From assembly GCA_045542435.1 (NCBI GenBank), contig JAZQLD010000002.1, positions 33,867-97,866 on the forward strand: a stretch of 64,000 nt of DNA. Direction: 5' to 3'. The DNA comes from Butyribacter sp. (GTDB taxonomy: Bacteria; Bacillota; Clostridia; Lachnospirales; Lachnospiraceae). The translations under genes and the position numbers were made by a program. This document shows, piece after piece, positions 1 to 55,033 of the stretch (position 1 is the stretch's first letter; each line of letters starts with the position of its first letter). The notes beneath the pieces are model-generated. The model searched no databases, was not told where the DNA came from, and saw only the letters and a list, made by a program, of their open reading frames with translations.

Positions 1-6
1 TCCCGA

Positions 7-498
7 GCAACTTCCCATAATATTCATTATCAAAAACTTGCAGAAATGATTTTTCGTCAAAACACTATGTAAAGAAAAAGATTTTTGGCATTGCTTTTTT
101 GATGACAACACAGGTCTTTTGAAGGACTTTGCTTTCTATGCTTTCTACATGGCGTACCGCAGCAGCACTGTCTGAACAGGATGGATGAGAGATGCAGTTG
201 TCCTTCGCAGAACGCTTGCGCTGCAGGTGATAACGCAGCGGTGCATAATGTCTCGAAATACGAGACATAAGCACCGGCGTTATCAATGCCCTGCTTAAGG
301 AAAACTGCACTCCATCCATCTCTGTGAGTTTGCGGAGGCGGTACGTAATCACCAGTAGAAAGCAGAAAGCAATTAGTCCTTCTTAAGACCGTAGAAGTTG
401 CGAAAAAAAGCAATCCAAAAACTTTTTCTATTATTTAGTTGTCTTAATCGAAAAATCATTATTGTAAAATATACATAATGAATATTATGGGAAATTGC
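7..498. repeat. Long imperfect palindromic repeat, family A copy 1. The conserved core is about 44..460, and locus-specific inverted arms lie at 7..29 and 476..498.
   Basis: The core closely matches 4473..4895 (inverted), 23985..24402 and the centre of 49908..50166. The two halves are reverse complements, for example gcattgctttttt / aaaaaaagcaat and ggatggatgagag / ctccatccatc. The outer arms gcaacttcccataatattcattat and ataatgaatattatgggaaattgc are not found in the other copies. Confidence 0.85.
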
Positions 499-533
499 AT
501 CTTCTTTATTCGTGAGAAGTTTTGTTTCCATAA

Positions 534-830
534 ACAAAAAAACGCCTTTAAGTACATGTTCTTAAAGACCAGTATTTCCCGTGTTACCACTTTAATTCAT
601 CTACACCTCACGATGCAGACCTTATCCACTGCTCCCAGTCAAAGTTTACAGTGAGACGCTTTAACGGGCGCACCCGTCGTAGCCTAGCAGAATCCTCTGA
701 AATTCTGTGTCGGTACGCAGCTCCAAGACCATCTTCCATGCCACCGTCATACACCCTTTCTCAGCCACCGGGTTCTCTGTAATACACAATGTCATGTACT
801 CTTCTCTTCATTGCCTTTTGCTATTTTCCT
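534..830 (-). promoter_or_regulatory. T-box leader (tRNA-sensing riboswitch) with an intrinsic terminator at its 3' end.
   Basis: The minus strand reads cagagaacccggtggctgagaaaggg (AGAGA box and GNUGNGA-like stem I element) and cgcccgttaaagcg (F-box-like CCGTTA). It also reads aattaaagtggtaacacggg, close to the T-box consensus AANNNGGGTGGTACCGCG. This is followed by the hairpin ggtctttaag-aacatgt-acttaaaggc and then gttttttt. The specifier codon was not determined. Confidence 0.65.
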
Positions 831-4342: not shown

Positions 4343-4376
4343 AAAATGCCAAAATGGTGCATTTTCATGCACCATT
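4343..4376 (-). terminator. Candidate intrinsic terminator downstream of the DHHW/MBOAT operon and of repeat copy A2.
   Basis: A perfect 10-bp stem aatggtgcat / atgcaccatt has a 4-nt loop. On the minus strand it is followed by ttttggcatttt. Confidence 0.5.
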
Positions 4377-4409
4377 TCATCCTTTCTACTTCCGTAGACC
4401 TGTATTTAT

Positions 4410-4959
4410 TAACTCAAACTTCACACACTTAAAATTCAACCAACTTCTCACAATATCAATTATATATATTTCGAAAAATGATTTTTCGCCTAAAAAGCAA
4501 ATATAGAGAAAAAGTTTTTTCATTGCTTTTCCTTGCAACTTCTACGGTCTTAAGAAGGACTACTCGCTTTCTGCTTTCTACTGGTAATTACGCAACCGCC
4601 TTCGCAAACTCACAGAAATGGATGGAGTGCAGTTTTTCCTACGCACGAGCGTTGCTGACGTCGGTGCTTATGTTTCGTATTTCGAAACATTATGCACCGT
4701 TACGCCAGCTCCCGGAGCGCAAGCGTTCTGCGTAGGAAAACTGCAGCTCTCATCCATCCTGTTCAAACAGTGCTACGGCGGTGCGACATGTAGAAAGCTT
4801 AGAAAGCGAAGTCCTTCAAAAGACCTGTGTTGTCTTCGAAAAAGCAATGCTAAAAATTTTTCTCTACATAGTACAAATTGCCGAAAAATCATTTTGCAAA
4901 TTCTGCTAATTGATATTGTGAGAAGATATTCCAATTTCAAGTGTGTGAAATTTGAGTTA
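4410..4959. repeat. Long imperfect palindromic repeat, family A copy 2, inverted relative to copies 1 and 3. Locus-specific inverted arms of 53 bp flank the core.
   Basis: The core at 4473..4895 is shared with the other copies. The outer arm 4410..4462 (taactcaaacttcacacacttaaaattcaaccaacttctcacaatatcaatta) is the reverse complement of 4907..4959 at about 46 of 53 positions. It is absent from the other copies. The element ends 5 nt from the stop codon of the 4965..6089 gene. Confidence 0.9.
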
Positions 4960-4964
4960 CTGCA

Positions 4965-6089
4965 TTAACGTATGACTCCGCTTAGGTTTTCGTCCTGGGC
5001 AAAGTTACTCATTTCATATAATACTAGCACTTCCTCCGCCTGATACTCCTCTGCCATCTCCTGCACAGACCCTTTATAATAACGCATATCCAGCATTTTT
5101 ATCTGACTGTACTCCTCCAGTAGAAATGGCACCATGCTATTAGCGAAGGAATCCTTAATAATTAACAATCGCTTCTGAGATGAAGCATTTTCATTAATAA
5201 TATCTACTTCGCCATAGTTACCGCCGAAGAAATACGCATATTGATCCTTCTCTTCCAGCTTGGCAATATCATAAATGCTTTCTTTTTCTCTTCCATCGCA
5301 GTAGACTTTTACCGGTGGCAGTTCCATAGGAGCATCAATTTCATCCGGTATGGCAGAGCGGTCCAATGCCTTAGAATATAAAGTACCATAAAAGGAATTG
5401 CTTACAGCCTTCACTCCATACTCTTCATAGCTTTCTCCATTGCTTCCTACACTTTCATAATAATTCATAGCCCCTGTATAGGCTCCATACAGACTCCAGT
5501 GGTGATCTGTTTTGTAATAAATCTGTCTCTTTTTACTTATTTCCTGAAATTCCTCCCGCAAATCAATAAAATTCACGTCCTCCAGTAAGTCCTGTGCTTC
5601 CTGATACATTTCATCTGAATCGTACAATGTCCCATGCTTTGGCAAATACTCCTCAAGTATGGTTCCTGGCGAAGGCACCAGCATCAGAGAAACCTCTGAC
5701 TCCTGCTGGCTTGCTGCCAGATAATTCACAAATCGTAGATTCTGAAAATAGTTTGTCTGAGAAATATCCTGATTCATTATTTTTTCAAAGTAATAATTTT
5801 CTTTTCCAATATATACTCCACCGATATCTTTATGTCCCAATGCTTTCTTAACACTGGTGGCACTCTGAGTCCACAAATCTCTTTGGATAAATTGGTCATT
5901 AAATGCATTTGTCATATCTTCCTGCCAGTCCCCAGATACAAAATCAGACCAGCTAAAGCTTGGAAACTGGGTTAAATACCGATTTTCATTGGCAGAAAAT
6001 TCCCGTTTGCCAAAAGCCACTGCCGAAACTCCTCCCGCAGTCAGCAAGGCAAGTATCCCGATAAAAAATACCAGATATATTTTCTTCAC
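4965..6089 (-). CDS. DHHW-family protein (AlgX/AlgJ-like SGNH-type accessory protein of an MBOAT O-acyltransferase).
   Basis: It has an N-terminal TM anchor and a YKTDHHWSLYGAY motif. It starts at GTG behind the RBS gaggagg and lies directly downstream of the MBOAT gene. Confidence 0.75.
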   Translation of the reverse strand: MKKIYLVFFIGILALLTAGGVSAVAFGKREFSANENRYLTQFPSFSWSDFVSGDWQEDMTNAFNDQFIQRDLWTQSATSVKKALGHKDIGGVYIGKENYYFEKIMNQDISQTNYFQNLRFVNYLAASQQESEVSLMLVPSPGTILEEYLPKHGTLYDSDEMYQEAQDLLEDVNFIDLREEFQEISKKRQIYYKTDHHWSLYGAYTGAMNYYESVGSNGESYEEYGVKAVSNSFYGTLYSKALDRSAIPDEIDAPMELPPVKVYCDGREKESIYDIAKLEEKDQYAYFFGGNYGEVDIINENASSQKRLLIIKDSFANSMVPFLLEEYSQIKMLDMRYYKGSVQEMAEEYQAEEVLVLYEMSNFAQDENLSGVIR

Positions 6090-22477: not shown

Positions 22478-23896
22478 CTAGTCTACAGCTAAACCGTTCC
22501 ATTCCCAAATCCTTCCTTGGAAATTACCCTTTAAAGCCTTCATTATAAATGGATTATTTTCTTCGTCTTTATCACATTCTATATAATATCGGCTGGTAAG
22601 AACCACTTCACCTTCGTTTAGATAAATTTCCACCAAAGAAGTATCCAAAAGAATCCGGCAGCTCTCCAGCTTGTCCAAAATCACTTGACGAATCTTCCGT
22701 CCTCTTCCGATTTCCTTTGCTGATTTACCATAAAATTTCATAGAAAATATCCCTGACTTATAATTCAAACAAAATCCCGACCCTATCTGGTCAAAATCAA
22801 TTTGAAATTCCTTCGATTCAATATCCTCTAATAAAATCTCATAAGCTTGTCTGCTCTCCCCAGATAAATTTCTATAAAGTACAAATTCACTGTCTGGCTC
22901 CAGCTTCCTTTCCCTTTGGCGAAGCTGCTCCAGTTCCTTCACTGGAGTTTGATGCACTCTTCCATTTTTCCACGTCAGCACCCTTGGCACTGTCAAAGCA
23001 TGCTGCCAGCCAGTTTGGATCGTAGGCTCATTGTCGTATTCTTCGTCTGCCAGCCCTGCCCAGCCAATGAGAATCCTTCTTCCCTGTTCATCGACAAAGG
23101 TCTGGGGTGCATAGAAATCAAATCCCATGTCCCATTCAATAAATTCTCCTAATGAGGGTTTGTCCAATATTTCACCCTCAACTAAAAAATACCCCGACTG
23201 ATAAATATTCTGATAACGATATTCCTCTGCCATCAGTCCTTGAGGAGATAAAGAAAGGATTCCCTTCCCAGTAGGCAAAGTAAAATAATCTGGACATTCC
23301 CACATAAAACCAAAATCATAATCTGTAGTAATGTCCTTCAAAAACTCCCATTTCACCAGATCCTTTGACTGAAAAATCAAGACTGCTCCCTTATCTCCCA
23401 CAAGTCTGCCGCCTTGAATCATATAAAAGGTATCATCCTGCTGCCACACCTTAGGATCTCTGATATGACAGGTATATTTTGACGGATAATCCTCATTCGT
23501 CATAACACACTGCTTAGCACTAAACTGCCTTCCATCTGTACTTGTCACCAGAATGGTATTGGCTTCCCGGCCGGTATGTACATAATCATGGACACCATCC
23601 TGCTCCACATTTCCAGTGTAATATAAATACATCTTCCCTTTATGCAAAAACGCACTGCCAGAAAACACTCCATCCTTATCAAACACCTGGTCTGGCTTTA
23701 AAGGTTCCCCCTCATATTTCCAATAAATTAAATCCTTACTGGTATAATGTCCCCAATACTTATTCCCGCCTTTGGGATTATCAGGTGTGTATTGAAAGAA
23801 AACATGATACACCCCCTGAAACTGACAAAGTCCATTTGGGTCATTCATCCACCCCAGAGGTGGCATCAAATGAAATAAAAGCCGGTTCCCATCCAT
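22478..23896 (-). CDS. scrB: GH32 sucrose-6-phosphate hydrolase / beta-fructofuranosidase.
   Basis: The motifs WMNDPNG, IRDPKV (RDP motif) and WECPD are present. The start is set at the ATG (MDGNRL) that follows the RBS ggagg. Confidence 0.85.
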   Translation of the reverse strand: MDGNRLLFHLMPPLGWMNDPNGLCQFQGVYHVFFQYTPDNPKGGNKYWGHYTSKDLIYWKYEGEPLKPDQVFDKDGVFSGSAFLHKGKMYLYYTGNVEQDGVHDYVHTGREANTILVTSTDGRQFSAKQCVMTNEDYPSKYTCHIRDPKVWQQDDTFYMIQGGRLVGDKGAVLIFQSKDLVKWEFLKDITTDYDFGFMWECPDYFTLPTGKGILSLSPQGLMAEEYRYQNIYQSGYFLVEGEILDKPSLGEFIEWDMGFDFYAPQTFVDEQGRRILIGWAGLADEEYDNEPTIQTGWQHALTVPRVLTWKNGRVHQTPVKELEQLRQRERKLEPDSEFVLYRNLSGESRQAYEILLEDIESKEFQIDFDQIGSGFCLNYKSGIFSMKFYGKSAKEIGRGRKIRQVILDKLESCRILLDTSLVEIYLNEGEVVLTSRYYIECDKDEENNPFIMKALKGNFQGRIWEWNGLAVD

Positions 23897-23920
23897 TTTC
23901 CTTCCTCCATTTCTCAAAAT

Positions 23921-24468
23921 ACTTACTCCTACTTCGCATAAAAAATGTTCTTCACCTTCCGATAATAATATCTATTAGAAATTTAAAATGATTTTTCATC
24001 AACATACTAAGTAAAGAAAAAGATTTTCGGAATTGCTTTTTCGAAGACAACACAGGTCTTTTGAAGGACTTCGCTTTCTAAGCTTTCTACATGGCGCACC
24101 GCCGTAGCACTGTCTGAACAGGATGGATGAGAGATGCAGTTGTCCTACGCAGAACGCTTGCGCTGCGGGAGATAACGCAACGATGCATAATGTCTCGAAA
24201 TACGAGACATAAGCACCGGCGTTATCAACGCCCATGCGTTAGGAGAACTGCACTCCATCCATCTCTGTGAGTTTGCGAAGGCGGTTGCGTAATCACCAGT
24301 AGAAAGCAGAAAGCGATTAGTCCTTCTTAAGACCGTAGAAGTTGCGAGAAAAAGCAATCCAAAAACTTTTTCTATATTTTGTTTTTTATATGAAAAATCA
24401 TTCTTAATAGTTGGTATAGATATTATTATCGGAAGGTGTAACATTTTTTATGCGCGAAGTAGAGTATT
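23921..24468. repeat. Long imperfect palindromic repeat, family A copy 3. It fills the whole intergenic region.
   Basis: The core is at 23985..24402. The locus-specific arms include caccttccgataataatatctat / atagatattattatcggaaggtg, and further out acttcgc-ataaaaaatgtt / aacattttttatgcgcgaagt. The element reaches the stop codon of the M56 gene at 24469. Confidence 0.9.
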
Positions 24469-29512: not shown

Positions 29513-30145
29513 ATGATAAAAAAGAATCGTAAAACATTAATTATTACAAGTATTGTGACATTACTTCCTATATTAGCCGGACTGATTTTATGGAACCGGC
29601 TTCCAGCAGAGATTGCCACTCATTTTAATGCCAGCGGAAAAGCAGATGGATGGTCTTCTAAGGAATTTACCGTTTTTGTTATGCCGTTCATCCTTTTGGT
29701 TTGTCAATGGATTAGCGTCGCAGCTACCAAAACCGATCCCAAAAACGAAGGAATTTCAGAAAAGATTATGACGTTGATTTTATGGATTATTCCTAGTGTA
29801 AGTGTGATTTTATTTTTCTGCTTATATACTACTGCTTTAAATTATCAAATTAATATCACTAGAATCATTATGATTTTTTGTGGTTTGATTTATATTATTA
29901 TTGGAAATTATATGCCAAAAATGAAGCAAAGCTATACCTTAGGAATCAAGCTTCCATGGACATTAAACAGCGAAGAGAACTGGAACCGCACTCACCGTCT
30001 GGGCGGATGGCTCTTTGTCTTTGGCGGTATCGCTACCATGGCAATCGCATTTACCAGCCAGCCACTTTTATTCCTGGCGGTTATGATAGTTATTGTAATC
30101 GTGCCTACGATTTATTCCTATGTACTTTACAAAAAAGGGATTTAA
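29513..30145 (+). CDS. SdpI/YhfL-family membrane protein (DUF1648 plus SdpI domain).
   Basis: It is polytopic and its N-terminus contains the ATHFNASGKADGW motif. It is paired with an ArsR-type gene, as in B. subtilis sdpRI. Confidence 0.7.
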   Translation: MIKKNRKTLIITSIVTLLPILAGLILWNRLPAEIATHFNASGKADGWSSKEFTVFVMPFILLVCQWISVAATKTDPKNEGISEKIMTLILWIIPSVSVILFFCLYTTALNYQINITRIIMIFCGLIYIIIGNYMPKMKQSYTLGIKLPWTLNSEENWNRTHRLGGWLFVFGGIATMAIAFTSQPLLFLAVMIVIVIVPTIYSYVLYKKGI

Positions 30146-30152
30146 TGTACAC

Positions 30153-30202
30153 AGCAGAACACGGTCTTGGTTTTTATTTTAAAGCAAATACCGTGTTCTG
30201 CG
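30153..30202. terminator. Hairpin between convergent sdpI-like and ldh genes. It is also the minimal member of the palindromic repeat series.
   Basis: The stem gcagaacacggt / accgtgttctgc has a 24-nt loop. The outer bases cacagcagaa...ttctgcgt resemble the termini of the repeats at 34461..34632 and 49908..50166. Confidence 0.55.
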
Positions 30203-30234
30203 TTATATATCTTTTTTCTGTGTCGTTTCCAATA

Positions 30235-32037: not shown

Positions 32038-32087
32038 ATTTTGCGTTTTGGTGTAAAATCATAAAATAATTACTTTCATGTGCCAAA

Positions 32088-32258
32088 GCACAGTAGGAAA
32101 AGCCCTTCATTTTCTGCATGAGTGGCGTTTGAACTCGCCGGTGCTTGAATGCTAGCAAGTGTTTTACACGACGCTGGCATTCTATGCATCCGTTGCGTAG
32201 TTCATCCCGAGCCGCAAGGCGTCCACGAATCAGAAAATGAAGGACCTTTCCTACGTCA
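32088..32258. repeat. Palindromic repeat, family B copy 1.
   Basis: The core gagtggcgtttgaactcgccggtgcttgaa...gcatccgttgcgtagttcatcccgagccgcaaggcgtccacgaa is shared with 34489..34602. It is flanked by the complementary arms gtaggaaaagcccttcattttctg / cagaaaatgaaggacctttcctac. Confidence 0.85.
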
Positions 32259-32277
32259 CTTCACCATGAATATTTTA

Positions 32278-34224: not shown

Positions 34225-34460
34225 ATTCCACCTCATTTCTGTCAGAAAATTTAATTCTTCCACATAGTAGCTTTTTGACAAAAGCATCGTTCACTTCCTG
34301 ACTTTTCTACATATATTCTTAGTTTGTACTATGATATAACGACTTATTCCTAAGTCTAGTCTTTTTGGAAAAATCCGTCAACGGTTATCTTATCAAATCA
34401 CGATTTACTAAATCATAATTTGATATTATTCTGTATTAAATATTTATTATATAGCCAATG

Positions 34461-34632
34461 CACAGCAGAAAAAGGTCATATATTTTCCGATTGAGTGGCG
34501 TTTGAACTCGCCGGTGCTTGAAGGATAACAAGCATATTATGCGAAGTTATCCTTCTATGCATCCGCTGCGTAGTTCATCCCGAGCCGCAAGGCGTCCACG
34601 AAAAGGAAACATATATGACCTTTTTCTGCGTC
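34461..34632. repeat. Palindromic repeat, family B copy 2, in the same orientation as copy 1.
   Basis: It has the same core as 32117..32230. The arms cacagcagaaaaaggtcatatattttcc / ggaaacatatatgacctttttctgcgtc differ from those of copy 1 but are still mutually complementary. Confidence 0.85.
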
Positions 34633-34664
34633 ATTCTATCCACAATTTATATCATGAGAAATCA

Positions 34665-44076: not shown

Positions 44077-44150
44077 TCATATCGCCTCCTTTTGTATTTT
44101 TACTTTCGCATTGTTACTATAACAGTAAAATTCTTCTTATAACTAAAATC

Positions 44151-44224
44151 AGGGACGAGTGGTAAAAAAAGGGGGACGAAATGCAAAAATGCATCTCGTC
44201 CCCCTTTTTTTACCACTCGTCCCT
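44151..44224. promoter_or_regulatory. Perfect palindrome (29-bp arms, 16-nt spacer) between the divergent agrD and agrB genes. It is a candidate dual LytTR-regulator operator.
   Basis: agggacgagtggtaaaaaaagggggacga (44151..44179) is the exact reverse complement of 44196..44224. Each arm contains GGGACGA twice with starts 21 bp apart. A TTGATT-18-TATAAT promoter (44229..44258) follows towards agrB. A TGtTATAGT extended -10 lies on the agrD side. Confidence 0.5.
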
Positions 44225-44288
44225 AGTTTTGATTATAGCTAGAAAAAAATATTATAATACATCATTATATATGACGGAGGAAAAAGCC

Positions 44289-47909: not shown

Positions 47910-48153
47910 GAATACTTGGAAACAATCCCAACGAAGAGTATTGCCTTCGTCAGCACTTGGTTTCCGTTTTGAAGATAGTACAGGGACGAAGTCCCATATA
48001 AGCGTATATGGCTAGGGCAAATTGATTTGCACCTAGCCGTATACACTTATATGAAGCACGATTAGTGCCTGTACTATCGTAAGGAAACCTATGTACTGCT
48101 ACAGAAGGCACCTAAGCGAAAGCGTCTCTGAGTGGGATGCTTTCCAAGTATTC
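47910..48153 (-). ncRNA. 244-bp imperfect palindrome (long bulged hairpin) within the kinase-araD intergenic region. It is either a candidate structured RNA or a repeat element.
   Basis: The outer stem is gaatacttggaaa (47910..47922) / tttccaagtattc (48141..48153). The inner stems are gatagtacagg / cctgtactatc and atataagcgtatatggctagg / cctagccgtatacacttatat. It is unrelated in sequence to families A and B. The strand is assigned only from the flanking operon. Confidence 0.5.
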
Positions 48154-48174: not shown

Positions 48175-49767
48175 TTAAATTAGATTTTCAACAGCTGCCT
48201 GCTCGATAGCAATACCCTTCTTATATCTTTCAATAAACTGCTCAAAGCCTTCCACATCTTTACTGTCCGGATTTTCGGTCACACCTTCACTGCCTGCAAA
48301 TACAGTATCATTCAGATAATCCTGAAGATTTTCTCCCGTTCCATTTAACATATAGGATGCCAGAAGTGCCATACCCCAAGGACCTCCTTCACCGGCAGTT
48401 TCCATTACTGCTACTGGAGCATCTATAGCAGCTGCCAGAATCTTCTGTCCTACTCCCTTGGTCTTAAAGAGTCCGCCATGGCCAAGGATGCTGTCGATAG
48501 CCACTTCCTCTTCCTTCAAAAGAATATCCATTCCTACCTTTAATGCGCCCAGAGAAGTAAAAAGATGACTTCTCATGAAGTTCGCAAGATTAAAGTTACT
48601 CTTTGGAGAACGTACGAAAAGTGGTCTTCCTTCGCTTACTCCTGTAATATTCTCTCCGGAAAGATAACCATAGGAAAGCAGTCCGCCACAGTCTGCGTCT
48701 CCTTCCATTGCCTTATGATATAAGGTTCCAAAAAGCTCATTCATATCCACCTTCATGCCAAAGCTCTCTGCAAATTCCTTAAAGAGATTGACCCATGCAT
48801 TCAGATCCGAAGTACAGTTGTTTGCATGCACCATACCTACCAGACTTCCATCCGGTGTAGTCACTAAGTCAATTTCCGGATATACCTTTTTCAGGTCTTT
48901 TTCCAAAACAATCATAGCAAATACAGAGGTTCCTGCCGAAACATTTCCAGTGCGCACTGCCACACTGTTGGTAGCTGCCATTCCAGTTCCTGCATCACCC
49001 TCTGGTGGACAAAGAGGTACACCTGCCTGCAGATTACCGCTTTCATCCAAAAGCTTTGCGCCCTCCTCTGTCAATACACCGGCATTTTCACCAGCCAATA
49101 ATACCTTTGGAAGGATTTCACTTAATTTCCATGGATAGTTCTTATCTGCCACCAGTGCATCAAACTTTCCAATCATTTTCTCATCATAGTTCTTCGTTGC
49201 AATATCAATCGGGAACATACCGGATGCATCACCCACACCAAGCACCTTTTCCCCAGTAAGCTTCCAATGTATGTAACCGGCCAGAGTCGTGAAAAATGTC
49301 ACATCCTTCACATGCTCCTCCTGATTCAGAATCGCCTGATACAGATGGGAAATACTCCATCTCTCAGGGATGTTATACTGGAACAGCTCTGTCAGTTCCT
49401 TTGCAGCAGGTCCGGTAGTACTATTTCTCCAGGTACGGAAAGGAACCAAAAGCTCTCCATCCTTATCAAAAGCCATATAACCATGCATCATAGCACTAAA
49501 ACCGATAGCACCAATCTTCGTAATGGTCACACCATACTTCTCCTTCACATCTGCTGCCATATTCTTGTAACTAGTCTTCAAACCAGTCCAGATATCCTCC
49601 AAAGAATATGTCCAAAAACCATTCTCCAGACGATTCTCCCACTCATAATCACCAGAAGCAATCGGAGCGTGGGTATCATCAATCAAAACAGCCTTAATAC
49701 GGGTAGAACCAAACTCAATACCCAGTACCGCCTTACCAGACTCAATCATCTCTTTTGCATTCGCCAT
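48175..49767 (-). CDS. FGGY-family sugar kinase, probably ribulokinase (clostridial AraK type).
   Basis: It has an FGGY fold ([22 protein letters not shown]). The assignment rests on being co-oriented with and upstream of araD. The ATG at 49767 follows the RBS aaggaaagg. Confidence 0.7.
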
Positions 49768-49872
49768 ATTACAGTCCATCCTTTCCTTCATATACTTATT
49801 TTCTTACTATATTTTTCCTTTTTTATTCTTTACATATTATACAACTTTTGTTTTTTAACTTCTACTAATAAC

Positions 49873-50194
49873 CAATTTCAATAATGCCATCGTATGAACA
49901 ACCAATACACAGCAGAAAATAGTCTTTCGTTTTACCAATTCCTACAATGCGCACCTGCCTCACAGCTTGCAGAAAATGGATGGAGTGCAGTTCTCCTAAA
50001 GCAGGGCATTGATAACGCCGGTGCTTATGTCTCGTCTTTTGAGACATTATGCACCGCTGCGTTATCACCTGCAGCGCAAGCGTTCTGCGTAGGAAAACTG
50101 CACCTCTCATCCATTCCTTCAACATACTCCAAGGCGGTGCGCCATACAAAGACTATTTTCTGCGTCATGCGTCATAGCTGACATTATTGAAATT
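49873..50194. repeat. Palindromic repeat, copy A4. It has the family A centre inside family-B-like termini, plus locus-specific outer arms.
   Basis: The centre ggatggagtgcag...ctctcatccat closely matches the family A cores by eye. The termini cacagcagaaaatagtctttcg / caaagactattttctgcgt resemble those of 34461..34632. The outer arms are aatttcaataatgccatcgtatgaac / gtcatagctgacattattgaaatt. Confidence 0.85.
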
Positions 50195-50203
50195 CTTTTA
50201 TTT

Positions 50204-51232
50204 TTATTTCTTCTTCATGCTTGCAAATATAGATTGTAACACAATGAAGAAGCAAAGCAAAGCCGAAAGAACAATTCTTACCCACCAGCTGTTCAAAGTA
50301 CCCTGTGTGGTAATCAGACTAGTAATAGTTCCCTTAATCAATACACCAAAAAGGGTTCCAATCGGAGTACCGACACCACCACTCAACAGGGTTCCACCGA
50401 TTACAGATGCAGAAATCGCATCCATTTCCAAGCCCTTAGCCTGCTCTACGAAACCGGCACAGCTGTTCAGACAGAACAAGAATCCACCAAGACCTGCCAG
50501 AAGTCCATTTAATACATAAGCTTTAAATTTGATTTTCTTTACATTCAATCCCATCATCATTGCACTCTGTGCATTTCCACCTACTGCATATACCTCACGG
50601 CCAAATTTGGTATATTTCATAACCAGTGCCACAATGATTACCACCACTACAGCGATAATTACCGTCGGATAAATATATGCTGGCAGGAAATTGCCTCGCT
50701 TACTATAGGAACCAAATGGCATATTGATTCTGAATTTTGCCCATTTCAGGAAGGTCTCATTGGTGATAGCAATCATCTCTGTACTAATCATAGATGTCAA
50801 ACCTCTACCAAAGAACAAACCTGCCAAGCTGACGATAAATGGCTGGATTTCCAGATAGGAAACCAGAAATCCCTGCACGATACCAAATGCCAAACCAATT
50901 CCTAGTGCAATAGCAACTGCAGCATAGGCATTCATTCCATGATTTTCCATCTGATTTGCCATTGCCATACAAATTAAAGCAGTGACAGAACCTACAGAAA
51001 TATCAATACCACCTGTAATCATTACAATGGTCTGACCCGCTGCAATCACCAGCAAACCAGCATTGGAAATAAACAGGTTCAAAAACATCTGTGGTTTTGC
51101 AAAACCTTTATCCTGAAATACAATCATACCAGCTATGTACATTACAAAGAACAATACAATCGTAATCATGAGAAGGAAGCTGTTTCCGTTTAGTTTCTTT
51201 TTTGTACTTGTTTTTGATTCAAAAATTCCCAT
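50204..51232 (-). CDS. CUT2-family sugar ABC transporter permease (YjfF-like).
   Basis: It is a polytopic protein of the ribose/galactofuranose-type permease family and the last gene of the transporter operon. Confidence 0.8.
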   Translation of the reverse strand: MGIFESKTSTKKKLNGNSFLLMITIVLFFVMYIAGMIVFQDKGFAKPQMFLNLFISNAGLLVIAAGQTIVMITGGIDISVGSVTALICMAMANQMENHGMNAYAAVAIALGIGLAFGIVQGFLVSYLEIQPFIVSLAGLFFGRGLTSMISTEMIAITNETFLKWAKFRINMPFGSYSKRGNFLPAYIYPTVIIAVVVVIIVALVMKYTKFGREVYAVGGNAQSAMMMGLNVKKIKFKAYVLNGLLAGLGGFLFCLNSCAGFVEQAKGLEMDAISASVIGGTLLSGGVGTPIGTLFGVLIKGTITSLITTQGTLNSWWVRIVLSALLCFFIVLQSIFASMKKK

Positions 51233-51233
51233 A

Positions 51234-52295
51234 CTATTTGCCTCCTTCCACTGCTGCCGATGTCCGTTTTGCCTTCAGGTTTGCAATAAACTTCTTAAAT
51301 ACCGGACTCTGTAAAATAACGATGATAATTACTACAATTGCCTTATAAACCGGCAACTGGTCTGCGGATACATTCATAGCATAAAGAGTAGTTGTCAGTG
51401 CCTGAATGGTGTATGCCCCGATTACAGAACCCATAAGGCTGAACTTACCACCACCAAGTACATTTCCACCTAAAGCTACTGCCAGAATGGCATCCATTTC
51501 CAGGTTCAGACCAATATTATTTGCATCTGCAGAATAAATACGGCTGGAAGCAACTACACCTGCAACACCTGCCATCAAACCACAGATGACATAGGTAAGG
51601 AATTTTATCAATGTAGAATTTAAACCTACCAGTCTGGATGCTGTTCCATTAATACCAACACTTTCAATATAAAGTCCTAAAGTGGTTTTCTTTAATACCA
51701 AATAAACAATAAGTGTTACAATAATTGCCACAAAGATTGGTGTCGGTACTGGACAATTTCCAATATAACCACCCATTACTTTATAGTTATCTACACGAAC
51801 ATAAGTAATCTGTCCATTAGTAACCAACTGGGCAATACCACGACCTGCAGTATACAGAATCAGTGTTGCCACCATTGGCTGAATATTTAACTTCGCCACA
51901 AGGAATCCATTAAAAGCTCCACAAAGCATAGATACCAATAATGCTGCCACTACTGCTAATGCAATTGGCTGTGCCAGTTCTGTTACAGACACTTCCCCAC
52001 CGGAAAGAATCTGACAGCATACAGCACCAGCCACTGCCATTACTGCACCTACACTAATATCCTGACCACCGGAAGCCGCCGTTACCAGTGTCATACCTAC
52101 AGCCAGTATCACCAGCTCCGATGCACGGTTAATTACATCGATAATATATCCATACAATACACCATTATTAATAGAAACCTTGAAAAATCCTGGTGTTGTA
52201 ATTACATTGACCAGTAATACGGCAATCAGACATACGATTGGCAAGAATAGCCGCATAGATGTAATATTCTTAATAGTTGTCTTCGCATTACTCAT
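51234..52295 (-). CDS. CUT2-family sugar ABC transporter permease (YtfT-like).
   Basis: It is polytopic. The ATG at 52295 follows the RBS ggaggtgg and overlaps the end of the ATPase gene. Confidence 0.8.
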   Translation of the reverse strand: MSNAKTTIKNITSMRLFLPIVCLIAVLLVNVITTPGFFKVSINNGVLYGYIIDVINRASELVILAVGMTLVTAASGGQDISVGAVMAVAGAVCCQILSGGEVSVTELAQPIALAVVAALLVSMLCGAFNGFLVAKLNIQPMVATLILYTAGRGIAQLVTNGQITYVRVDNYKVMGGYIGNCPVPTPIFVAIIVTLIVYLVLKKTTLGLYIESVGINGTASRLVGLNSTLIKFLTYVICGLMAGVAGVVASSRIYSADANNIGLNLEMDAILAVALGGNVLGGGKFSLMGSVIGAYTIQALTTTLYAMNVSADQLPVYKAIVVIIIVILQSPVFKKFIANLKAKRTSAAVEGGK

Positions 52296-53805
52296 CACTA
52301 CCACCTCCTGCTATTGCCTTCATGATACCTTCCTGAGATAATTCATCCCCAGATAATTCTCCAACCTTTTTTCCATCTCTCATAATCCCCATACGTGAAC
52401 AGGTACGAAGCATTTCTTCTACCTCAGAGGAAATAAAGGTTACTGCCATCCCCTTATCTGCAAGATCCAGTACCAGCTTCTGAATTTCTGTCTTAGTACC
52501 GATATCAATACCTCTGGTAGGCTCATCCAAAATCAGGTATTCCGGATTGGTTAAAAGCCAGCGACCAATAATTACCTTCTGCTGATTTCCACCAGACAAG
52601 CTCTTAATTGGAGTTTCTCTGTTGGCAGTCTTAATCTGAAGCATTTCTATATACTTATCTGCTGCCTCTTCCATTTCCTTACGGCTCATTGGCTTAAACA
52701 TTCCCTTTTTCGCCTGAAGAGCAATAATAATATTTTCACGAACAGACAGGTCTGCAATGATTCCATCTTTCTTTCTATCCTCTGGAAGATATGCCATTCC
52801 CAGTTTCATAGCATCAATTGGAGCATTAATCTTTGCTTCCTTGCCATTTATCTTAATAGTTCCGCAATCTGGCTTATCTGCTCCATAAACAGCACGAACC
52901 AACTCGGAACGTCCAGAACCAAGCAATCCGGTAAGACCAACCACTTCTCCTCTGTTCACAACGAAGTCAAAAGGCTTAATACTTCCTTTGCGTCCAACGC
53001 CCTTTGCCTCTACTACTGGTTCAAACTTCTCCAATTTCTTATGATTACTCTTAATATCCGCTAAATCATCAAAGTTCTTACCCATCATCTTTGCCACCAA
53101 TTCTACTCTAGGCAAATCTTCCACGGTATATTCTCCTACCAGCTTACCATTTCGAAGTACGGTAATCCGGTCACACACTTCGTATACCTGCTCCAGGAAA
53201 TGAGTTACGAAGATGATTCCAACTCCTTCCCCCTTTAACTTTTTCATAAGAACAAATAACTTTGCTACTTCTTCGTCATCCAGAGAAGAAGTAGGTTCAT
53301 CCAGAATCAGAACCTGACACTTCATATCAACTGCTCTGGCAATAGCAATCATCTGCTGTTTTGCTAATGAACATTCTTCTAATTTATCTGTTGCTCTCGC
53401 ATCAATATCCAGCTTCTTTAAAAGCTCGGTTGCTTTCTTATTCATAGTCCGCCAGTCAATAAATCCCAGCTTCTTTGGTTCTCTTCCAATAAATAAATTC
53501 TCTGCTACGGATAAGTTTGGACAAAGGTTTACTTCCTGGTATACCGTACTAATGCCATGACTCTGGGCATCCTCTGGAGATTTGTTTATAATAGGAGATT
53601 CGCTTCCCGCCATTCTGATTTCACCACTTTGAAAAGAATGTACACCGGTCAGCACTTTAATCAATGTGGATTTGCCTGCACCATTTTCGCCCATCAGCGC
53701 ATGAATCTCGCCTTTACGCAAGGTGAAGTCCACATTCTGTAATGCTTTTACTCCCGGGAAGGTCTTTGATATATCTTTCATTCTTAATACAATATTATTT
53801 TCCAT
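52288..53805 (-). CDS. Sugar ABC transporter ATP-binding protein with duplicated ABC domains.
   Basis: It has two nucleotide-binding domains. The first carries GENGAGKST, and the second carries LSGGNQQK and ILDEPTRGID. Confidence 0.9.
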   Translation of the reverse strand: MENNIVLRMKDISKTFPGVKALQNVDFTLRKGEIHALMGENGAGKSTLIKVLTGVHSFQSGEIRMAGSESPIINKSPEDAQSHGISTVYQEVNLCPNLSVAENLFIGREPKKLGFIDWRTMNKKATELLKKLDIDARATDKLEECSLAKQQMIAIARAVDMKCQVLILDEPTSSLDDEEVAKLFVLMKKLKGEGVGIIFVTHFLEQVYEVCDRITVLRNGKLVGEYTVEDLPRVELVAKMMGKNFDDLADIKSNHKKLEKFEPVVEAKGVGRKGSIKPFDFVVNRGEVVGLTGLLGSGRSELVRAVYGADKPDCGTIKINGKEAKINAPIDAMKLGMAYLPEDRKKDGIIADLSVRENIIIALQAKKGMFKPMSRKEMEEAADKYIEMLQIKTANRETPIKSLSGGNQQKVIIGRWLLTNPEYLILDEPTRGIDIGTKTEIQKLVLDLADKGMAVTFISSEVEEMLRTCSRMGIMRDGKKVGELSGDELSQEGIMKAIAGGGSDE

Positions 53806-53855
53806 TTTTCCCTCACCTGCTTTCTACAGCATTATAATTACCTATTTTTACATCA

Positions 53856-53908
53856 AAAACGGCGTGGCAGCTTAATCAGGCCTTCTGCCTAGTATCGTCT
53901 ACCACGCC
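53856..53908 (-). terminator. Intra-operon hairpin (partial terminator or attenuator) between the binding-protein gene and the ATPase gene.
   Basis: The stem ggcgtgg / ccacgcc encloses a 34-nt loop. On the minus strand it is followed by gtttttgatg. Confidence 0.45.
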
Positions 53909-53959
53909 AGATATTTAATTTTTATGAGTACAATTAAGATATTTTTGGAGGCTTACTTC

Positions 53960-55033
53960 TTAATATGCACGGCCATCAACAACTTCCTGAGTTACTTCAG
54001 TTACTTCGTAATCAGTTCCGTCAATAGAAACAGATGCTACATCTGCACCATGTGCGAAAATTCCTTCTTCTACATATGCCTTCTTCTCAGGTGTTCCACC
54101 CTCTTCCAGAGTCTTAATAATCTCTTCTACACGAGGTCCATGAAGTGGGTTACACTCTGTGTTCAGGATAATCTTTCCATCTAATGTATCTGTGATACCA
54201 GCCTTTGTTGTATCGAAGGACATTACAAGGATGTCTCCATCAGGACCAACTGTCTTACCAGCTGCTTCGATAGCATCGATAGCACCAAATGCTTCGTTAT
54301 CATTCTCACAGTAAACAACGTTGATGTTGTCATGCTGTTTCAGCATAGACTCCATAACTTCCTGTCCTTTCGCCTGTGTAAATTCACCAGTCTGCTGAGC
54401 AAGTAAGTTCCAGCCATATTTCTCAACAGCGTCATCTAAAGCCTGTGTACGTCCAATCTGAGCGGAAGCACCGATTGTACCCTGAATATCAACAATGTTG
54501 ATTTCCTTCATTCCCTTAGCTTCTGCATATGCATTCAACCATTCACATGCCTTCTGTCCTTCTAACAAGAAGTCAGAGCCAACCCATGCGGTGAAGAGGC
54601 TTTCATCAGATACTTTAACCTCACGGTCAACAATGATTACAGGAATATCTGCATCCTTTGCTTCCTGAAGTACTGTGTCCCAACCAGTCTCTGTAACTGG
54701 AGCTAAAACGATGTAATCAACTTCCTGCTGGATGAAGTTACGAATTGCTGTAATCTGATTTTCCTGTTTCTGCTGGGCATCATCGAAAATCAGCTTGTAA
54801 CCATTTTCCTCTGTAAATGTTGATTTCATAGACTCAGAGTTTGCTGTACGCCAGTCAGACTCTGCACCTACCTGTGAGAAACCTACTGTAATAAGGTCGC
54901 CGCTTTCAGCACTTTCGCTGCTTGCTCCGCCTGATGTTGCAGCTTCTTCGCTGCCACCACCCCCACAACCAGCTAAAAGGCTAGCTGTCATTGCCATTGT
55001 AAGTGTTGCTGCTAATAATTTTCTTTTCATCAT
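53960..55033 (-). CDS. Periplasmic-binding-protein-type sugar-binding lipoprotein (YtfQ/RbsB-like).
   Basis: It has the lipobox LLAGCGG and a Ser/Gly/Glu linker, followed by a type I PBP fold sequence. Confidence 0.85.
   Translation of the reverse strand: MMKRKLLAATLTMAMTASLLAGCGGGGSEEAATSGGASSESAESGDLITVGFSQVGAESDWRTANSESMKSTFTEENGYKLIFDDAQQKQENQITAIRNFIQQEVDYIVLAPVTETGWDTVLQEAKDADIPVIIVDREVKVSDESLFTAWVGSDFLLEGQKACEWLNAYAEAKGMKEINIVDIQGTIGASAQIGRTQALDDAVEKYGWNLLAQQTGEFTQAKGQEVMESMLKQHDNINVVYCENDNEAFGAIDAIEAAGKTVGPDGDILVMSFDTTKAGITDTLDGKIILNTECNPLHGPRVEEIIKTLEEGGTPEKKAYVEEGIFAHGADVASVSIDGTDYEVTEVTQEVVDGRAY

Follow-up and report, generated by a model that had tools for sequence, protein, structure and literature searches.

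A probable lineage-specific family of layered, strand-asymmetric hairpin repeats in a Clostridia-like chromosome

The 64-kb window (the whole stretch of DNA analysed here) holds at least seven, and perhaps eight, members of what is probably a lineage-specific family of interspersed, strand-asymmetric hairpin repeats, in which a conserved apical module is enclosed by palindromic shells that vary in number and sequence. Three members are long (~550 bp), one is 330 bp, two are 185 nt, one is a 65-nt mini copy and one is a possible distant relative (Table 1). An earlier note on this DNA had put the family at three, a count that the further members overturn. The family is a previously undescribed, layered variant of REP/ERIC/MITE-like repeats, and its 550-bp copies are, in the best-supported reading, composites that have spread recently, each as one unit.

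Much is known of interspersed palindromic repeats in Proteobacteria; in gut Clostridia they are, to our knowledge, little described, and palindromes of 550 bp are normally unstable in bacteria. The present repeats combine in one family strong structural covariation, a near-invariant ortholog, strict post-stop placement and layers of up to 550 bp. Layers that come from nesting or fill-in would represent a new route of repeat evolution, and a conserved core that proves to bind a protein or to work as RNA would add a new regulatory element with effects on many operons. Lying within operons, in 3′ UTRs and behind a T-box leader, such hairpins could confound gene calling and assembly and may change the expression of neighbouring genes.

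Members of the family and their genomic setting

Table 1. Family members in the 64-kb window and features that define their setting
Feature	Position	Strand	Setting and remarks
Long copy c1	1-525	+	Left end clipped by window start; covariance model match 175-331 (+), E = 1e-13
Long copy c2	4410-4959	-	550-nt imperfect hairpin; covariance model match 4606-4763 (-)
Long copy c3	23918-24468	+	551-nt insert from the stop of an M56/BlaR1-like gene to the GH32 ribosome-binding site; antisense to both genes
Copy c4 (~330 nt)	49871-50197	-	From ABC permease stop to xylB promoter; ~205-nt unit of c1-c3 inside short-type outer arms
Short copy c5 (~185 nt)	32079-32261	-	17 nt past nadE stop codon, co-oriented with nadE
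Short copy c6 (~185 nt)	34451-34636	-	~30 nt past stop of zinc-ribbon gene; upstream of nadE promoter
Mini copy	30145-30210	-	25 nt past ldh stop codon; ortholog at L016 4781-4868; short-type termini and basal stem, no apical module
Possible distant member	47910-48153	-	3′ of xylB; ~245-nt hairpin with short-type-like motifs and expanded apex; tentative
Terminator-like hairpin and T-run	4352-4377	-	Downstream of c2 on the minus strand
T-box leader (context for c1)	561-820	-	RF00230, 87.6 bits, E = 8e-20; terminator 569-544
Older loci			3′ of nadE, zinc-ribbon gene, xylB, permease, ldh, 167-aa gene and DHHW gene

The three long copies described in the earlier note are all present and differ from one another at a minority of positions (84-89% pairwise identity by BLAST), with c2 inverted relative to c1 and c3. 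Each is a single long imperfect hairpin; c2 folds to -239.9 kcal/mol on the plus strand and -269.4 kcal/mol on the minus strand, compared with approximately -121 to -136 kcal/mol for shuffled sequences (z ~ -20, with none of 100 shuffles equalling c2). The arm asymmetry GGTCTTTTGAAGGACT / GGTCTTAAGAAGGACT was found again in the long copies, as was the absence of a credible open reading frame, the frames being broken differently from copy to copy. A coding role was rejected: the ORFs of the core end at different points (17, 37, 47 and ~85 aa) and do not occur in the short copies. A protein search with a spurious ORF taken from the element found no other copies.

Homology among the long copies reaches further than the proposed ~420-bp core with unique flanks, as BLAST aligned c1 11-497 with c2 4925-4441 and c1 8-463 with c3. 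When alignment significance was determined for the 66 nt outside that core, the flanks of c1 were similar to those of both c2 (p = 0.002 and <0.0005) and c3 (p = 0.024 and 0.006). Between c2 and c3, the inner 33 nt were similar in the left flank (p = 0.0045) and not in the right (p = 0.47), and the outermost 33 nt had no detectable homology (p = 0.95 and 0.17). Within a copy, flank complementarity is strong (score 37 vs 6-7 in shuffles). The idea of locus-specific palindromic flanks survives for the outermost ~33 nt of c2 and c3, c1 being clipped by the window edge, and falls for about half of each flank, which is homologous between copies. From these alignments a genuinely copy-specific arm pair does appear to exist, but it would span only ~30 nt, and as the copies compared are few and come from a single genome plus four or five relatives, such "copy-specific" arms may represent unsampled subfamilies. 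They are best read as fast-evolving or subfamily-specific terminal shells that would be carried by the element and would not derive from target DNA. The earlier argument that transposition yields direct and not inverted duplications was a fair one, but the supposed inverted target duplication is mostly element sequence.

A covariance model (R1), built from seven short copies only, recovered all short copies at about 150-200 bits (~190 bits on the forward strand vs about 17-20 bits on the reverse) and found the cores of c1-c4 at E-values of 1e-10 to 1e-13 on a single strand only. It also found two mini copies, each with short-type termini and a basal stem and with the apex missing. Short and mini copies share the termini ATGACGCAG ... 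CTGCTGTGCATTGG, which are conserved imperfect terminal inverted repeats, and the middle stems of the short copies are variable. Only the central 140-205 nt of c4 is common to c1-c3; the palindromic arms of c4 are its own, and the outer ones are asymmetric, 21 nt being unpaired on one side. The nesting order starts from an apical module present in all full members, continues with a next shell common to c1-c4 and further shells in c1-c3, and ends in copy-specific outermost arms. The copies fall into four size classes, namely mini copies (shell only), short copies of ~185 nt, a 330-nt form, and long composites of ~550 nt in which the ~205-nt unit sits in extra shells. The two short copies of the window were listed as a pair, D2, by the repeat finder. 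The tentative member 3′ of xylB contains a second hairpin in its apex (47995-48053), was not detected by R1, and may be a diverged or re-nested family member; relatives have an ordinary short copy there.

The window itself is ordinary Clostridia-like chromosome with genes mostly on the minus strand and a strong GC skew, and its xylulokinase has its nearest named homologs in Dorea and Faecalicatena (82-83%). Comparison of the window ORFs with Pfam (most ORFs ≥120 aa) revealed no mobile-element genes, transposase domains or integrase. At 7/7 independent older loci the element lies 0-30 nt past a stop codon and is co-oriented with the upstream gene. Judged from gene and terminator positions, long copies c1-c3 lie just past stop codons or a terminator, in intergenic DNA that would be transcribed. 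As stated earlier, c2 and c3 abut stop codons: c2 starts 5 nt past that of the DHHW gene (4965-4967), and c3 begins immediately past the M56 stop codon and ends 21 nt upstream of the GH32 start codon. The proposal that c2 is transcribed as a 3′ UTR is compatible with the terminator-like hairpin found downstream of it, after which comes a perfect promoter match (TTGACA-17-TATAAT) at 4284-4256. Copy c1 is located ~10-20 nt downstream, on the minus strand, of the T-box leader terminator, and would thus sit in the 5′ UTR of a gene beyond the window edge.

The T-box leader scores just below the RF00230 gathering score of 93, which is why a default Rfam scan missed it. The gene it regulates lies off the window, past c1, and c1 occupies the gap between leader and gene.

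Compensatory change, arm asymmetry and selection on the folded strand

Covariation was tested, and compensatory changes exceeded both slid and shuffled controls in short and long copies alike. Among the 71 consensus pairs of the seven short copies, 35 have changed on both sides; 92.3% of cells are paired, compared with 78% in shuffles and 33-43% with slid partners, and the covariation score of 0.453 (vs 0.18) was reached by none of 500 shuffles. The long copies have 184 pairs, 21 of them compensatory, where slid controls have 0-2 and shuffles 8.2 ± 2.2. Of these 21, nine fall among the 23 pairs of the helix outside the core that the earlier note had defined. Selection for an extended stem, one of three origins offered there for the outer palindrome, gains support from these changes.

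The two arms of a hairpin are ~72% identical overall, rising from ~55% near the centre to 80-87% outside. Since the copies resemble one another more closely (84-89%) than the arms do, and have asymmetries, bulges and loops in common, the arms have not been homogenised, and gene conversion between them was rejected. The conserved unpaired features are a side stem-loop (GCC-N4-GGC), a bulge with the sequence A(G/A), and an internal loop, AUA/AA, that separates UGC/GCA from the apical stem; a kink-turn reading of this last loop was rejected by inspection. A specific imperfect fold is preserved. Pairing along the whole stem is kept by compensatory change while the asymmetries are kept as well, showing that the folded single strand is the object of selection.

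Which nucleic acid is folded is a separate matter. In c1-c4, G.U pairs favour the transcribed genomic strand whatever the orientation of the copy (36 vs 13), a bias that could come from strand-biased mutation. The seven short copies have as many A.C as G.U cells (14 each), so an RNA-type wobble bias is absent there. Because nearly all genes are on one strand, orientation with transcription is inseparable from orientation with replication. The folded strand would most likely be read-through RNA that forms a 3′-UTR or intercistronic hairpin acting on mRNA processing, stability or termination. It is, however, also the lagging-strand template, and a single-stranded DNA hairpin for mobilisation would fit equally well. 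For the older, co-oriented copies the balance leans toward RNA over DNA. Of the three long copies, c1 and c3 have the antisense orientation relative to local transcription, which makes a sequence-specific RNA role impossible for them. A general terminator role is unlikely, as only the copies 3′ of xylB are followed by a U-tract.

Comparison with relatives showed that sites remain occupied across species while their occupants change. Short copies are carried by relatives 3′ of nadE, of the zinc-ribbon gene and of xylB. The c4 locus was compared in four genomes, in which the adjacent xylulokinase is 98-99% identical. The L019 ortholog of c4 is 95.7% identical (14 mismatches in 324 nt, of which one is in the central ~170 nt), where the flanking genes have a fourfold-site divergence of 0.21-0.28 and the spacer to xylB differs by 20% plus indels. 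The near-identity of c4 across species could reflect recent local recombination rather than constraint. In L024 and L025 the same outer arms enclose a different, shorter apex of the short type.

Several further observations concern turnover in this region. The copy upstream of nadE (c6) is 89% identical to the L016 copy downstream of nadE, against 66% for its positional ortholog; between the species, the repeats on either side of nadE have changed places (window 34451-34636 and 32079-32261 vs L016 284-468 and 2696-2880). A 160-nt tandem partial unit with its apex deleted occurs at L024 9770-9930 and is absent from L025, which differs from L024 by 2% at fourfold sites, a contrast that shows rapid structural change at these hairpins. 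Divergence is also mosaic when window 48175-55033 and 22478-23917 are each compared with L014, L016, L019, L022 and L025: the xylB, aldolase and ABC transporter proteins are 97-99% identical with fourfold divergence of 0.21-0.43, and GH32, at 73-77% identity in codon alignments, reaches a fourfold divergence of 0.56. Such a pattern suggests that the region has recombined or that constraint along it is very uneven.

These data bear on a tentative alternative, to which we give limited credence, that the repeats are a host-functional structured RNA family (a cis-acting 3′-UTR element, or a small RNA with a protein partner) with numerous paralogs, for which mobility is secondary. In its favour, paired and unpaired bases of c4 are extremely conserved in the ortholog, and bulges and internal loops are kept across short and long copies while the stems covary. 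Post-stop placement with co-orientation at all seven older loci and the occupancy of positions across species point the same way. However, the occupants of those positions were swapped between species (c6 resembles the L016 copy L016_a more than its positional ortholog), and between L019 and L022 the conservation of the element 3′ of xylB does not exceed that of the adjacent spacer (95.7% vs 97.9%). No internal promoter was detected in c2 or c3, c1 and c3 run antisense, and the short copies lack a G.U excess. Finally, Rfam 15 at gathering thresholds gave no match anywhere in the window, and c2 and c5 searched at E ≤ 10 returned only noise below 20 bits. The core thus matches no known structured RNA family in Rfam, and on this count the novelty claimed for it earlier stands.

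Insertion at c3 and the origin of the layers

A clear insertion polymorphism is seen at c3, which separates two genes that almost adjoin in relatives. Homologs of the neighbouring GH32 gene are 68-75% identical (BLASTP), and the M56-GH32 spacing is 1-32 nt in L014, L015, L016, L017 and L018, representing three lineages, compared with 551 nt in the window. When the junctions are aligned to L018 and L014, the insert lies between the TAG stop codon and TTGAGAAATGGAGG, and the c3 palindrome (AATACT ... AAGTATT) spans the inserted segment end to end. Neither outer arm resembles the orthologous empty sites. Since relatives have 1-32 nt where the window has 551, the entire c3 palindrome was inserted, outer arms included, and the long form spread in this lineage as a whole unit with its outer arms.

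This history speaks, at c3, against two further origins that the earlier note had offered. Outward growth of the palindrome by template switching on local flanks is not supported, given arms that are unlike the empty sites and a palindrome that is exactly the insert. Insertion into a pre-existing hairpin does not hold at c3 either, where the relatives have no hairpin, but a similar state is seen at c4, with its ~205-nt unit inside short-type arms. No direct repeat indicative of a target-site duplication was found at c3 relative to the empty sites of L014, L016 and L018, which are distant enough that 2-3 bp would be beyond resolution. With a transposase, a target duplication and an excision product all unseen, mobility rests on one insertion polymorphism plus copy number, and we can only infer how the family moves.

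The state of c4 suggests an alternative history that is possible, if doubtful, in which the inner unit is mobile and targets the apex of hairpin elements or terminators, leaving outer arms that are the remains of the host hairpin. IS1397 and ISKpn1 insert into REP loops, providing precedent for apex targeting. At the site upstream of xylB, one and the same pair of outer arms surrounds the 205-nt unit in the window and L019 and a short-type apex in L024 and L025, and the c4 junctions are asymmetric, with an unpaired piece of the right arm left over. Mini copies would represent a shell without its apex, and the hairpin 3′ of xylB holds another hairpin in its apex. However, mini copies are equally explicable as apex deletions, and L024 has both forms in tandem, so that the two states could arise by differential loss of neighbouring paralogs. 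No solo outer-shell hairpins of the long-copy type were found in the window and the relatives' loci compared, and the empty sites at c3 are without any hairpin.

Layers could also accumulate from outside, like those of an onion, although we regard this as unlikely. Mobilisation of the single strand would carry a 5′ overhang of donor flank, polymerase fill-in would add a shell that is initially perfect, and repeated moves would repeat the process. In its favour, shells are shared hierarchically: all members have the apex, c1-c4 have the shell around it, c1-c3 add one more and share part of the inner flank, and the outermost ~33 nt are unique. Arm symmetry also climbs from the centre outward, outer mismatches in c2 are mostly transitions, and the outer arms at c3 arrived with the insert. 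The short copies show the opposite pattern, with conserved termini and variable middle stems, and the compensatory substitutions in the outer helix of the long copies indicate that it is inherited and evolving rather than newly copied. The outer arms of c4 are asymmetric, with 21 nt unpaired on one side, and a search of the window and the relatives' loci compared revealed no donor flank that matches an outer arm.

A combination of these routes is a similarly long shot: a strand-specific module that was re-wrapped repeatedly, by apex nesting or donor-flank fill-in, such that the layers of a 270-bp stem record its history and the innermost 170-200 nt serve, almost unchanged, as a functional RNA or as a single-stranded DNA site recognised by a protein. 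Copy c4, the mini copies and the expanded apex 3′ of xylB suggest layering by nesting, and hierarchical shell sharing and the outward rise in arm symmetry suggest donor-flank fill-in. Least probable of all is an IS-derived MITE of the ordinary kind whose transposase gene lies at another place in the genome. Such a MITE would fit the conserved imperfect terminal inverted repeats of the short and mini copies and a multicopy, intergenic distribution with one clear insertion polymorphism, but not long copies that are least conserved at their termini (terminal sequence is not detectably shared by c2 and c3), the lack of a visible target-site duplication at c3 and of a transposase in the window ORFs scanned against Pfam (most ≥120 aa), or a covarying stem over the whole length with conserved asymmetries, which is foreign to MITEs.

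Comparison with known repeats and wider distribution

The composite hairpin family described here most resembles ERIC, REP/REPIN, Correia and bcr-type repeats. ERIC/IRU elements of Enterobacteria are ~127 bp long and occur in either orientation (Hulton 1991; Sharp and Leach 1996; Wilson and Sharp 2006). Like the window family, they are imperfect palindromes in transcribed intergenic DNA with no known transposase, size variants via internal insertions and centre deletions, and orthologs conserved beyond expectation. Unlike ERIC, the window family ranges from 65 to 550 nt with up to four nested shells, and its older copies strictly follow the orientation of the upstream gene; the two probably have no sequence similarity, and the hosts belong to different phyla.

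Some Correia-, BOX- or bcr-type repeats are cut by RNase III or alter mRNA stability, and some bcr groups have compensatory changes. Correia (NEMIS) elements of Neisseria, pneumococcal BOX, RUP and SPRITE (PMC3049150) and bcr of Bacillus cereus are likewise lineage-restricted, co-transcribed intergenic repeats that form RNA hairpins. Correia and RUP differ from the window family in having defined terminal inverted repeats and target duplications, the modules of BOX are arranged in tandem and not nested, and none of the Correia, BOX, RUP, SPRITE or bcr elements is known to have a 270-bp stem. Integron attC sites keep their structure with little conservation of stem sequence, and extrahelical bases mark one strand (Bikard 2010 review). 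The window family similarly has a single orientation right after ORFs, structure over stem sequence and conserved extrahelical bases, but its members are far longer, with no R′/R″ sites visible by eye and no integrase or cassettes. Their neighbours are core housekeeping genes in conserved synteny.

REP sequences are 20-40 bp stem-loops with an unpaired GTAG or CGTC tag, REPINs are ~100 bp, and RAYTs are the associated transposases (PMC3733652, PMC3116915). The survey in PMC3733652 includes no family from Firmicutes and does not mention Firmicutes in its text. REP, BIME and REPIN elements and the window family are hairpin repeats located mainly downstream of genes, between unidirectional or convergent ORFs, and they share a supposed role as RNA elements, larger hairpins (formed by REP dimers) and long vertical persistence (PMC3733652, PMC3116915). 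Unlike REP and REPIN stem-loops and their ~100-bp dimers, the window units of 65-550 nt are far longer and have a complex asymmetric apex. The 5′ terminus of the repeat does contain GACG, but inside a paired stem, and no RAYT gene was found in the window.

Searches for the family elsewhere returned little. No match to c2 or c6 was found by blastn in 72,556 plasmid or 50,697 phage records, and scanning IMG/VR for a long-copy 17-mer and for a short-copy motif turned up chance matches only. GTDB genomes and JGI metagenomes likewise gave only chance matches to GAACGCTTGCG-N72-100-GCACTCCATCC, a long-copy-core pattern that is blind to short copies.

Two other palindromic features were noted in the window. 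A 114-nt near-perfect palindrome at 44131-44244 (55-nt arms, 85% complementary, 4-nt spacer) lies directly upstream of, and overlaps, the start of an agrB-like gene; it is separate from the hairpin repeat family and has partial matches upstream of agrB at L024 15316-15397. The intergenic segment 29048-29124 contains two copies, 33 nt apart, of the 22-nt palindrome TATTTAGAAA(T/A)TTTTCTAAATA, which resemble operator sites.
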